Of a stretch of DNA of 64,000 nucleotides, positions 46,211 to 55,789 are shown one piece after another; the first letter of the stretch is position 1, and every line of letters begins with the position of its first letter. Position numbers and translations under genes: made by a program. The stretch is taken from the NCBI GenBank assembly GCA_964016885.1, contig OZ024741.1, forward strand, positions 392,770,001 to 392,834,000, read 5' to 3'. Source of the stretch: Eledone cirrhosa (Eukaryota). The notes under the pieces were generated by a model. It was given only the letters and a program-made list of their open reading frames with translations. It was not told the DNA's origin and did no database searches.

Positions 46211-46575
46211 TATAAAGAAAAAGGGATGAAATCGAAAATGCAACTGAAGTCTTATTTTTTTTTAAATATATATATTTATTTGGTTCCTTTACCGGTTTCG
46301 CAGTTCTTCTGCTTTTCAAAAGGTGAGTTGAGATGGAGGGTCTGTAGTTTTTCTCACAATGGCAGATGTGAGAAAAACCACAGACCCTCCATCTCAACTC
46401 ACCTTTTGAAAAGCAGAAGAACTGCGAAACCGGTAAAGGAACCAAATAAATATATATATTTAAAAAAAAATAAGACTTCAGTTGCATTTTCGATTTCATC
46501 CCTTTTTCTTTATACTTCCACTCGTGTAGGACACCTCGGTTATTTTTCATTTTGTAAAAAAAACCTCACTTTCTA
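46211..46575 (+). mobile_element. Non-coding hammerhead element with 5' fold-back (palindrome 46211-46514); second copy 55240-55545
   Basis: Near-perfect arms, (TA)n flanks, U3-A8 hammerhead at 46402-46439. Confidence 0.85.
46402..46439 (+). ncRNA. Minimal hammerhead with U3-A8 core (also 46286-46323 minus, 55371-55406 plus)
   Basis: CCTT-TTGAAAA-GCAG-AAGAA-CTGC-GAAA-CCGG-TA-AAGG. Confidence 0.75.
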
Positions 46576-46583
46576 ATATATAT

Positions 46584-46960
46584 ATATACGATATTAAACA
46601 AATGGAAACTATATTTATAAAACCATATTTATTTCATTATACATATTTCAGGGATACCATATTAAAAATATGGCATGCCTTCGTCAGATAAAATACAATA
46701 TATAAACAGTTTTATAAATAATTTTGACGTACCATATTTATGGTACGTCAAAATTATTTATAAAACTGTTTATATATTGTATTTTATCTGACGAAGGCAT
46801 GCCATATTTTTAATATGGTATCCCTGAAATATGTATAATGAAATAAATATGGTTTTATAAATATAGTTTCCATTTGTTTAATATCGTATATCTACTCCAA
46901 AAACTTGTCGAGTGCTTTATATCGGTTATAAAATATTTACTTGTTGTAACCCAACAATTT
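46584..46960 (+). repeat. Perfect fold-back palindrome (46584-46891) of the Penelope terminal repeat with hammerheads at 46781-46844 (plus) and 46631-46694 (minus)
   Basis: ATTTTAT-CTGACGA-AGG...CCT-GAAA-TATGTA-TA-ATGAAAT. Confidence 0.9.
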
Positions 46961-47066
46961 TAAATAAAACTTTTGCATATATATATATATATATATATAT
47001 ATATATATATACATATATATATATATACATATATATATATATATATATATATATATATATATATAT

Positions 47067-48215
47067 ATAAAAACAAATAACGAAACGAAATTAAATTTCG
47101 TTTCGTTTGTAACTCACTTTTGTATGACTGACGCTTAAACAATTAAGTTAAAAATGTACATCCACATATGTATACTGAAATACTAGTATGCATATGAATA
47201 CACACACGTATACATATGTAGATGTACCGAGTTTTTCACTGGTCACTTTACTGTGAGTGTCCAGCTATTCTGTATGTAAACACACAGACAAACCGGTTTT
47301 TAGAGTCATACTGGTTTTTGAGGAAACACCTTTCCTCTATTCTCCAGAAAGCCAGACAAGGAATATTGAGCTAGTTTCGTTGTTGTTACAACTCATCAGC
47401 AATATTTACCCATCTTCCGGCCTCTCTAGAGAATCGTAAAAGCACATATCGTTATATGCTTTTTCTATGAAAATTAGTAGTGGGCAGACTAATTTGCATA
47501 GAGCGTGAGTACGTACCGGTTCAACGGAGACGATAAAAACAAATAACGAAACGAAATTAAATTTCGTTTCGTTTGTAACTCACTTTTGTATGACTGACGC
47601 TTAAACAATTAAGTTAAAAATGTACATCCACATATGTATACTGAAATACTAGTATGCATATGAATACACACACGTATACATATGTAGATGTACCGAGTTT
47701 TTCACTGGTCACTTTACTGTGAGTGTCCAGCTATTCTGTATGTAAACACACAGACAAACCGGTTTTTAGAGTCATACTGGTTTTTGAGGAAACACCTTTC
47801 CTCTATTCTCCAGAAAGCCAGACAAGGAATATTGAACTAGTTTCGTTGTTGTTACAACTCATCAGCAATATTTACCCATCTGTGCCAATATTTACCCAAT
47901 ATTTACGATATGTGCTTTTACGATTCTCTAGAGAGGCCGGAAGATGGGTAAATATTGCTGATGAGTTGTAACAACAACGAAACTAGTTCAATATTCCTTG
48001 TCTGGCTTTCTGGAGAATAGAGGAAAGGGTTTCCTCAAAAACCAGTATGACTCTAAAAACCGGTTTGTCTGTGTGTTTACATACAGAATAGCTGGACACT
48101 CACGGTAAAGTGACCAGTGAAAAACTCGGTACATCTACATATGTATACGTGTGTGTATTCATATGCATACTAGTATTTCAGTATACATATGTGGATGTAC
48201 ATTTTTAACTTAATT
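47067..48215 (-). mobile_element. Retrozyme-like non-coding element: 1.75 tandem units of 466 bp plus an inverted partial copy, three hammerheads
   Basis: Repeat starts at 47067 and 47533. Hammerheads at 47362-47406 (minus), 47828-47872 (minus) and 47951-47995 (plus): AATATTG-CTGATGA-GTTG...CAAC-GAAA-CTAG-TT-CAATATT. Confidence 0.85.
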
Positions 48216-48342
48216 ATATATATATATATATATATATATATGTGCGTGTATGTGTGAGTGTGTGTATATATGATAAAATATTATAGTTGGTTTGAAGCAT
48301 TATATATATATATATATATAATGCTTCAAACCAACTATAATA

Positions 48343-49043
48343 TTTATGCCACGAAACTACGTAGTCGAGGAATCTAGGAGAAGTTTGGGTATGATACATT
48401 TTATTACTAATTATATCTAAATGTTTCTTCTCTCTTCATAATGTATTTTTAACTCTGATACTGGTTCAGTCTAATTCAACCGGATTGGTCTGTCCCAGTC
48501 ATTCATTGAGCAACATCGGTAAGGTTGGCACCATTAACTCACGGTTGGATGTGGATGCATTCATGTATATGTGTGTGTCCGCATGTATCTGTGTGTTTCT
48601 AAATATATTGTTCATAACTCCCTCTGGTCGAGTAATCTTTGAAGTGTGGTGACTGCTGGAAAGCTGCCATTACTCATACTTCTCGCCTCCTTCACCACCT
48701 CTTCTACGGCTTCGATATAAATACCCCCTCCGCCTCCGTGGTATTTTCTTCGGGGTTATAAGAGGCTTAGCTCTGTTTCTCGACCGTTATATCGCGTGAC
48801 TATCTCCCCCTCCGCCTTTTGGGATTCTTTCTCACGTCATGTAGACGCGTTCTTGAAGCTAGTAAAATGAGGTATCCTCTTGATAAGTCGGCAGACCTCG
48901 CAAAGGCTCTATATCTTTATGATGTATTGTTTTTGTTTATGCCACGAAACTACGTAGTCGAGGAATCTAGGAGCAGTTTGGGTATGATACATTTTATTAC
49001 TAATTATATCTAAATGTTTCTTCTCTCTTCATAATGTATTTTT
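48343..49043 (+). mobile_element. Retrozyme-like non-coding element: 593-bp unit with ~107-bp direct terminal redundancy
   Basis: 48343-48450 is repeated at 48936-49043; complete hammerhead at 48875-48964. Confidence 0.8.
48875..48964 (+). ncRNA. Type I hammerhead with U3-A8 core and long stem II
   Basis: TCCTC-TTGATAA-GTCGGCA...TGCCAC-GAAA-CTACGTAG-TC-GAGGA. Confidence 0.75.
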
Positions 49044-53275: not shown

Positions 53276-53801
53276 ATATATATATATATATATATATATA
53301 TATATATATATATATGATAAAAATAAAGATAAAATATATAAATAAACGAAAAAAAAAAATATGGATACAATAAGAGAAAGATACAAAAAATGATGGAGGC
53401 AAATTGTGTTTGCACCATTTGCCTCCATCATGGATCAACTAAGCACCCTTGCTATATTAACACATTTTGATTTGCTTATCTTCAAGAACTATGCCTGTAA
53501 ATAACATTATTTTTCTTTCACCTTGCCTTATTATGCTCCACATTACGCCCCTTTTTTTCTCTTTTCTTTTCACTTCATAAACCTTGTTTGTAAATAACAT
53601 TATTCTTTCTGCACCATTTTTTTAACATGTCCAACACCACCATTCTACACCAATACATATTATTATCATTTGATAATGCATAAAAATGCTGAAACCGGTA
53701 ATAGACAATTATTAAATAAATAAATAAATGCCATTGTTAATTAATAAATAAATCAACTAATACCTTAATACTTCACACAAAGTAAAATATAGAAGAGCTT
53801 C

Positions 53802-53843
53802 AAAAATATGGAACGCTTCACGAATTTGCGTGTTATCCTTGCG
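53802..53843 (-). pseudogene. U6: U6 snRNA 3'-terminal fragment (retrocopy)
   Basis: Minus strand CGCAAGGATAACACGCAAATTCGTGAAGCGTTCCATATTTTT matches the conserved U6 3' end with one mismatch. Confidence 0.92.
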
Positions 53844-53846
53844 TGT

Positions 53847-54056
53847 CATCCTCTTCTATATTAAAACTTTTATACTCTGCTTTGTCTTGAGTACCTTACA
53901 TACTGTGGTTACCTCCGATTCAATCCGGAATAACTTATATATATATATATATATATATATATATATAAGTTATTCCGGATTGAATCGGAGGTAACCACAG
54001 TATGTAAGGTACTCAATACAAAGCAGAGTATAAAAGTTTTAATATAGAAGAGGATG
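53847..54056. repeat. Near-perfect palindrome (~90-bp arms) centred on (TA)n
   Basis: CATCCTCTTCTATATT...GGAATAACT-(TA)n-AGTTATTCC...AATATAGAAGAGGATG. Confidence 0.9.
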
Positions 54057-54635
54057 TGAATTGACCGCCAGAAACCGGGGTTACCTCCCTTTGGAGTAAC
54101 ATGTGCTTCACACCTGGTTTTGTGTTAGAACGAAAGCCTGTTGAGAAAGTAAATTCCTCTGTTCGATCTTCCAGAAACCTAACTTGTATACACCATAAGC
54201 GGATTTTGTTGATTTCGGATTTACAGAAACCTCACTTGGATATTCAGTAATTTCCAAGTGACGGTCCAGGTATATTATATATACAGATATGTGCATATGT
54301 GTATGTATGTATATTTTTATATGTATATATATGTGTGTGTGTGTATTTCCTTTTCTCACTAGTCAGTTCTTTCATTGATACAGATCACGCAGCTGAATTA
54401 GCGGTCGCTATTTTCAATTTGCAAAGCCCTTTAAACTGTATGTTATTACTCTGAGGTTTATTCCTTGTCGAGTGCTTGGCTCCACTGCTGAAGGCATTCG
54501 TTGGCTTGGCTGCTGATCGAACTTTGAATATACTGTACTATTGTATATATTTCTCTCTCTCTCTCTCTATATATATATATATATATATATATATATATAT
54601 ATATATATATATATATATATATATATATATATATA

Positions 54636-55225
54636 TATAAGTATGTATACGTACATACATATATGTATACAGACGTACAGTAGTATGTATATATATATAC
54701 ATACATGCACATATATATATATGTACGTATGGATTCACCGAACATTTATTATAATGGTCGGTGTGTTTGTAAACAAACATCCCGAATTAAGCCGTACAGT
54801 GTTTAGCAACCATCGTTGCTCATTTGTTCAACACTGACAAAGGAATGCAGTACTAGTTTCAAGCTTATTAGCTATCGTCAACAACGTATACCTTCCTGCC
54901 AGATGGTTGAACGTCTGAAAGTATATACTTTCCTTATGCATATTAACGGCTGAGCAGCCTAATTTGCATATCGAGTGAGTTAATCGGCCGAGGTACCGAA
55001 AACGATAAACGGAAAAAATGAAACGAAATTTCATTTCTCACTCTTAGTACGACTGTTACTTAAATATATATATGTACATATATATATGTGTGCATGTATG
55101 TATATATATATACATACTACTGTACGTCTGTATACATATATGTATGTACGTATACATACTTATATTTAAGTAACAGCCGTACTAAGAGTGAGAAATGAAA
55201 TTTCGTTTCGTTTTTTCCGTTTATA
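54636..55225. repeat. Nested inverted repeats of a family related to 47067 and 2429-2475
   Basis: 54636-54730 versus 55070-55165, and 55006-55068 versus 55163-55223; degenerate hammerhead at 54847-54885 (minus). Confidence 0.7.
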
Positions 55226-55789
55226 TATATATATATATATATAAAGAAAAAGAGATGAAATCGAAAATGCAACTGGAGTCTTATTTTTTTTTTAAATATA
55301 TATATTTATTTGGTTCCTTTACCGGTTTCGCAGATGTGAGAAAAACCACAGACCCTCCATCTCAACTCTACTTTTGAAAAGCAGAAGAACTGCGAAACCG
55401 GTAAAGGAACTAAATAAATATATATATTTTTTAAAAAAATAAGACTCCAGTTGCATTTTCGATTTCATCTCTTTTTCTTTATACTTTCACTCGTGTAGGA
55501 CACCTCGGTTATTTTTCAATTTGTAAAAAAAACCTCACTTTCTAATATATATATATATATATATATATATATATATATATATATATATATATATATGTAT
55601 ATACACACACTCATACGCATATATAAACACATACATACACACACATATACATGCACACACACACATATATATATTGTTATACTTTGGGAGGTTCATGTTG
55701 CCAATAACAACACACACACACCTGTTGGTTTTCACTTAAATTTATTATAAGTTTCCGGTTGGTTGGTTGGTTCGATAACTGGAAGGGTG

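Follow-up and report, generated by a model that had tools for sequence, protein, structure and literature searches.

In the active fold of hammerhead ribozymes C3 and G8 form a Watson-Crick pair, and a C3-G17 trap has been described (PMC3884650). Covariation from C3-G8 to U3-A8 was reported in several natural hammerheads by Perreault et al. in 2011, who cite Przybilski and Hammann 2007 for the in vitro activity of U3-A8 variants (PMC3088659). In 2014, Cervera and de la Pena described about 1,300 U3-A8 minimal motifs in Penelope-like elements (PLEs) of Schistosoma, which their first descriptor had missed, and in their supplementary alignment a U3-A8 motif of S. mansoni stands next to a C3-G8 motif of S. 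japonicum that resembles it (PMC4209133). The U3-A8 variant and its PLE link are already published. Here we describe such motifs in a 64,000-nt stretch of the Eledone cirrhosa genome (assembly GCA_964016885.1, contig OZ024741.1, positions 392,770,001 to 392,834,000 of the forward strand), hereafter the window, in which coordinates are counted from the first base. Two PLE families, A and C, carry the motifs at their 3' ends, and a non-coding tandem repeat, family B, carries them too; it is quite likely, as judged from the sequences, that a fixed U3-A8 pair replaces C3-G8 in all three and keeps self-cleavage possible.

Four sites in the window are real hammerhead-ribozyme motifs with U3-A8 instead of C3-G8. 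All of them show the type I core N3-UGA-N7-N8-A9 with a Watson-Crick 3-8 pair, followed by GAAA, UH and a palindromic stem III suited to a double hammerhead (ACCGGU in families A and C, ACUACGUAGU in family B). The first, a minimal motif of family A at 46402..46439 (+), has the core UUGAAAA (U3 46406, A8 46411, GAAA 46426-29), a stem I of 4 bp (CCUU/AAGG), a stem II of 4 bp and a predicted cut after A17 at 46435. The second family A motif (55371..55406, +; U3 55374, A17 55403) has the same core and a 4-bp stem II, and belongs to a subfamily with a 3-bp stem I. In the family B motif (48875..48964, +) the core is UUGAUAA (U3 48880, A8 48885, GAAA 48946-49, C17 48959), with a stem I of 5 bp and a bulged stem II of 6 bp that carries a 59-nt arm (48887-48945). 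The family C motif (53668..53702, +; U3 53670, A8 53675, A17 53700) is hammerhead-like and weak, with the core UUGAUAA, a 2-bp stem I and a U.U closing the base of stem II. Thus the cores, GAAA and UH read as the initial annotation of this DNA had stated. Stems I and II are present around the core at 46406, 55374 and 48880, and its description of the stems as intact at 46402 and 48875 and weak at 53667 also stands, "intact" being generous for 55371 with its 3-bp stem I.

Scanning the window with a descriptor that left positions 3 and 8 free, with 30 dinucleotide shuffles of the window as controls, gave three real U3-A8 matches against 0.07 per shuffle. These were the two family A sites and an inverted twin of the first (46286..46323, −; U3 at 46319), which was absent from the initial list. 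This first descriptor missed 48880, due to the stem II bulge and the 59-nt arm, and 53670, due to the 2-bp stem I; both were recovered in later scans. Rfam returned a hammerhead match at neither 46406 nor 48880 (E<=10), as expected from the claim that standard searches would miss the variant, and the matches listed from a whole-window Rfam scan (150 of 175) include not one of the four. As the canonical C3-G8 sites at 6050, 22641 and 46788 are likewise outside those listed matches, the Rfam miss is not specific to U3-A8.

Both 46406 and 55374 belong to family A, for which a genome pattern search gave 11,898 exact matches to the core pattern with any base at position 8. The first site lies in a 5'-truncated PLE end (46363-46588, +) with its 5' partner inverted (46211-46358, −) and (TA)n adjoining, the whole feature (46211..46588) being 92-95% identical by blastn to a full-length natural copy, L303. 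A second truncated end (55331-55600, +), also delimited by blastn, is accompanied by an inverted piece (55240-55333, −) that ends within stem II, and together they span 55240..55600. Upstream, family A sequence runs into a GIY-YIG end. L303 contains two identical intact open reading frames (ORFs) of 775 aa in tandem, 3.9 kb apart, with the family A motif about 1 kb after each; the ORF matches GIY-YIG (E 3e-6) and RVT_1 (E 4e-6; 27 bits, under the cut-off of 29.6). A further candidate for a full-length copy, at C1:26.47 Mb, was discarded: two truncated copies lie there separately, and the DNA between them holds no PLE ORF.

The family C site lies in the 3' untranslated region or pseudo-LTR (long terminal repeat) end of a PLE at 53413..53790 (+), with 89.9% identity to L088, a copy that carries a GIY-YIG end (E 2e-4) upstream of the motif. 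A genome pattern search gave 1,063 matches to the 3' half of this motif. Family C motifs are found about 410-740 nt downstream of the GIY-YIG end, which is related to that of family A; one subfamily is without stem I, and the U.U closing pair is common to the related C3-G8 family L287. In both A and C, a single ORF upstream of the motif encodes a reverse transcriptase (RT) with DKG and YLDD, a linker of the CX2-5CxxC type (CX4CxxC: CGRSNCGTC in A, CGRPNCGIC in C) and, at the C terminus, a GIY-YIG endonuclease (EN), as in PLEs with a C-terminal EN. The insertions also have the PLE form, with tandem full-length copies (L303), inverted 5'-truncated partners in the window and pseudo-LTRs, this kind of partner being usual for PLEs (PMC8557442). 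By motif, A and C are Neptune/Nematis-type PLEs, a level at which Neptune and Nematis are not told apart.

Family B is of a different kind. The repeat at 48343..49056 (+) comprises 1.2 units of a 593-nt non-coding unit, with a longest ATG frame of 48 aa and a GC content of 42%, its opening part, at 48347, being a first hammerhead's 3' half. Genome-wide there are 7,300 matches to this 3' half, with a tandem period of 587-595 nt (about 591 nt), and arrays reach at least 5 units among the matches listed. Family B is thus non-coding and tandemly repeated, every unit bearing a type I hammerhead, which fits a non-LTR retrozyme. Its autonomous parent was not found, as blastn against the DNA sampled here gave only diverged B-like copies, and a pattern combining its stem III with a short stem II had no matches. 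Among contigs from four runs of unrecorded kind, one of 621 nt (X5) spans one B unit and another (X6) contains a head-to-tail joint. Such contigs could come from a circle or from tandem DNA alike, and we draw no conclusion from them on family B RNA.

Each of the three families is fixed for U3-A8. In family A, the two mismatched classes counted amount to 23 G8 and 52 C3-A8 places among the 11,898 matches, and the 12 G8 places that were fetched are all U3-G8. Against its 7,300 copies of the 3' half, family B has 12 non-A8 copies (7 U-G, 4 U-U, 1 U-C and no C-G) and 10 non-U3 copies; moreover, the 5' box was reached in 36 of the 39 rows listed and all 36 are U3-A8, with some places repeated by overlapping loci. 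For family C, a genome-wide count of variants at position 8 gave 456 exact U3-A8 and 3 non-A8 copies. The initial annotation had proposed this comparison of U3-A8 with mismatched copies as a check on selection. It does establish fixation, since no family has a C3-G8 consensus with mismatched variants as frequent as U3-A8. As a test of selection it was rejected, because within-family mismatches occur at the rate of the unconstrained position 7 (in family A, A7G 32, A8G 23 and U3C 52 of 11,898) and so say nothing on selection. The single mismatches of family A are mutations after insertion.

The informative comparison is the one across families. A descriptor scan with positions 3 and 8 free covered 1.344 Mb: the window, four 10-kb stretches next to it and another 124 of that length taken at round coordinates on contigs C1 and C2 (128 in all). 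The 125 matches comprised 78 C-G, 22 U-A, 2 C-A, 1 U-G and 22 others (70 C-G and 18 U-A when the window is subtracted). Eight shuffles of the same DNA gave means of 0.2 C-G, 1.2 U-A, 0.9 C-A and 0.5 U-G, and of 16 matches over all classes, so that the U-G and C-A counts are at shuffle level. Sixteen families were present at two or more loci: 11 C-G, 3 U-A (A, B and an approximately 320-nt tandem repeat) and 2 others (A-G and U-C), which by eye are RT coding sequence of long interspersed nuclear elements; none of the 16 is U-G or C-A. Positions 3 and 8 thus covary across families, and the initial reading of C3U plus G8A as compensatory, keeping the Watson-Crick pair, is correct. The repeat of about 320 nt (L131 (−), L091 and L133) has U3-A8, C17, a palindromic stem III and compensated variants of stem II (GUAC/GUAC vs GCAC/GUGC), and is likely a second U3-A8 retrozyme. 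L172 (U3 at 3181, −) holds one more U3-A8 motif, in which position 17 is C and stem III reads CAAUUG.

The clearest case lies outside the window, in two sister families, L106 (U3-A8) and L304 (C3-G8), whose proteins are 60% identical. L304 carries RWR (RWK-like), DKA (DKT-like) and the linker CNCRRASGC (CxCX5C), and the pair is assigned to the Hydra clade by motif only. Their hammerheads align base for base, and the differences are C3U, G8A and one compensated stem I pair. A pattern spanning both families has 2,097 matches, and the first 100, read by eye, are 55 C-G and 45 U-A and include no mismatched copy; position 7, by contrast, is either U or A within each family. What decay alone produces can be seen in an old C3-G8 family, where the first 100 of 4,799 matches are 91 C-G, 4 U-G, 4 C-A and 1 U-A; a U3-A8 copy of a C3-G8 family at L192, considered as a subfamily switch, is best read as such a copy decayed at both positions, being one among the first 100 listed. 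The old family bears on the possibility that U3-A8 is neutral GC-to-AT decay which a few source elements happened to fix, as decay does yield all three classes there. It equally shows that mutation supplies single changes freely, which makes the absence of single-change families informative: under drift, fixed single changes should outnumber fixed double ones, and neither a multi-locus U-G or C-A family nor a mismatched copy among the 100 Hydra-type matches was seen. We therefore regard neutral fixation as largely refuted and very improbable. The sequences would fit instead a course in which C>U and G>A arise as common decay changes, a source element with one of them does not spread and one with both does.

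The initial annotation took repeated double substitution in three unrelated families as a sign of selection. The covariation of the 3-8 pair across families and the recurrence of the switch are supported; three unrelated families are not. A and C are in fact relatives, with 50% identity over 726 aa (48% between A and the C3-G8 family L287), and have in common a stem III with CCGG, A17 and a GCA..UGC stem II. The best RT plus EN tree groups them with support 64/69, and an SH-aLRT of 96 was obtained only in a quick EN tree. A single U3-A8 origin for A and C is on these grounds the likelier course. The Hydra-type family falls in the other main clade (100/100) together with its C3-G8 sister, which points to a second origin. 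By this phylogeny there are at least two U3-A8 origins in this genome, the A/C lineage and the Hydra-clade family, and three are not shown. Three independent compensated double substitutions, one each in A, B and C, would agree with the DNA similarity of their 3' regions, which is limited to short AT-rich matches, and with the Hydra pair, where the switch does recur. Moreover, a clade of A and C excluding L287 is weakly supported and the alternatives are not rejected (p-AU 0.14 and 0.07), so that their monophyly is not firmly resolved against that C3-G8 family. The topology test rows were without L179, L118, L107c and L113d and with L107b added. A topology test that rejected A plus C (p 4e-9) was set aside as ill-posed, having left out L179, a row nested inside C, and one motif alignment is uninformative for L287, whose row ends up downstream of its hammerhead. 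Given the shared protein and motif features of A and C, and given that pattern and blastn searches found neither the parent of B nor a C3-G8 relative of it, we consider three separate events improbable.

How the motifs would act can be outlined from predicted folds. In transcripts of tandem copies, two motifs would pair via the palindromic stem III into a double hammerhead, in agreement with the dimeric action of short-stem-III hammerheads (PMC4209133). The double hammerhead would cut after position 17 and yield unit-length RNA for reverse transcription, and in family B the product would likely be a circle of about 591 nt, copied in trans by a PLE enzyme. The minimum free energy fold of the B dimer is a full double hammerhead with C17 unpaired, and B is predicted to be the best cutter, released as a unit. 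The A 46406 dimer is also predicted to fold into a double hammerhead; in it U3 pairs with A17, and A is for this reason predicted to be attenuated. C is doubtful and may either need the element's protein or be inactive. Several points weigh against the proposal that the U3-A8 motifs still permit self-cleavage. The U3-A17 pairing in A has a monomer probability of 0.52, the 55374 copy is predicted to fold into stems II and III only, and site 53670 of family C into a different hairpin. In the across-family scan, singletons were assigned to families by descriptor only. Published minimal PLE hammerheads cleave poorly in vitro. In an Anolis PLE, cutting by the ribozyme required protein, insertion in vitro did not need the ribozyme, and RNA-seq showed no ends at its site (PMC11167929).

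Alternatively, the A and C motifs, not that of B, may be vestigial or structural, with a 3-8 pair inherited from an active ancestor and with an RNA that does not cut and instead gives the element's protein a signal for binding or folding. The U3-A17 pairing in A, the 2-bp stem I and competing hairpin of family C with its one subfamily without stem I, the dispensability of cleavage in the Anolis element, and the spread of Naiad PLEs without canonical hammerheads (PMC8557442) all speak for it. On the other side, the core is kept in 31 of 33 family C rows listed, though the adjoining upstream sequence varies by subfamily (these rows were located through the 3' half of the motif); one pair in stem II is compensated when A is compared with C; and the U.U closing pair of family C also occurs in C3-G8 family L287 and in the axolotl HHR_Amex2 (PMC7229834). 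A loss of cutting in A and C is thus possible, though we think it rather unlikely, and continued self-cleavage of the U3-A8 motifs is the reading that we favor. Within the latter, the identity of the 3-8 pair may set which cleavage-site base is usable. U3 would pair with A17 and lock the site, as a mirror of the C3-G17 trap, and lineages would then either shift to C17 (B and three other U3-A8 families, cutting freely, with B making its circle of about 591 nt) or keep A17 latched until opened by the element's protein (A and C). At the family level the numbers incline toward this, C17 occurring in 4 of 8 U-A rows and 2 of 22 C-G rows (Fisher p 0.03), a contrast that may reflect shared ancestry and includes two doubtful U-A rows. 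We put this idea forward tentatively, as it is still more likely to be wrong than right, and by a wide measure.

The window is part of a 3.0-Gb genome with abundant (TA)n and a repeat landscape that seems reminiscent of octopod genomes. The descriptor scan found 8 canonical C3-G8 motifs, all in inverted pairs. They belong to at least four other families, at 5812-6145, 18785-22747, 46581-46894 and 47067-48215, and those with C3 at 6050 and 22641 stand behind Hydra-type endonuclease fragments. One pair, of another family, occupies 46630..46845 (C3 46788 (+) and 46687 (−)); a second occupies 47828..47995 (C3 47958 (+) and 47865 (−)), with a third copy at 47346-47417 (−) and Rfam HH9 matches under the gathering score. 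A decayed end of the abundant C3-G8 family with 4,799 matches lies at 49426-49642 (+), its core at 49489 damaged. Many near-perfect inverted repeats of 70-1,100 nt were also observed (46211-46514, 46581-46894, 48276-48345, 53847-54056 and others), several centred on truncation points or (TA)n, and they give rise to spurious Rfam microRNA matches. A weak U6 small nuclear RNA match at 53802-53892 (−; 28.5 bits, under the gathering score) is probably a retrocopy fragment. By eye, a fragment at 50000-50380 (+) resembles a Helitron-type helicase end, and those at 51460-51800 (−) and 52789-53270 (−) resemble pieces of non-LTR retrotransposons. At 6862-7656 (+), a 265-residue open frame lies between inverted arms (6405-6613 and 7789-7997); it reads like what we presume to be a Tc1/mariner transposase.

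About one fifth of the Watson-Crick-paired motifs in our sample (22 of 100) are U3-A8 and invisible to CUGANGA searches, and for A, B and C combined the copies matched by exact patterns alone exceed 20,000. Besides this scale, the genome offers a clean experiment made by nature: two young sister families whose difference is exactly the 3-8 pair, with no mismatched intermediates. They are good evidence of selection for the catalytic fold in PLE hammerheads, a point that the dispensability of cleavage for insertion in vitro had left in question, and they provide matched natural constructs. A literature search that left most subscription papers uncovered showed nothing on U3-A8 in octopus Penelope hammerheads, in a repeat of the retrozyme type or in an element of the Hydra clade, and nothing on the proposed U3-A17 lock.

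Among described systems, the variants of Perreault et al. show the same covariation as here, the accessible part of that account being without a link to PLE phylogeny (PMC3088659). The closest likeness is to the Cercyon PLEs of Schistosoma mansoni, which share the covariation, the cores UUGAUAA and UUGAAAA, the place in PLE repeats and the opposite-strand pairs (PMC4209133). In contrast to Cercyon as described there, stem III here keeps a palindrome of 4-8 nt, A and B have no extra base after A9, copy numbers are about 10 times higher, and a Hydra-clade family and a non-coding repeat in tandem carry the variant as well. Family B resembles the animal non-LTR retrozymes (Cervera and de la Pena 2020, PMC7229834; Li et al. 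2026, preprint 10.64898/2026.07.22.740005) in its tandem, non-coding units, each with one hammerhead of type I, and in its GC content of 42%; it differs from the typical retrozyme, with a unit of about 300 nt, in its unit of about 591 nt, its U3-A8 core and its 59-nt stem II arm, and is known from DNA. Finally, A and C share with Neptune/Nematis PLEs the RT, linker and GIY-YIG motifs, and L106 and L304 share with Hydra-clade PLEs RWR, DKA and the CxCX5C linker (Craig et al. 2021, PMC8557442); inverted 5'-truncated partners and (TA)n flanks are further points of likeness, and only the core pair differs here.

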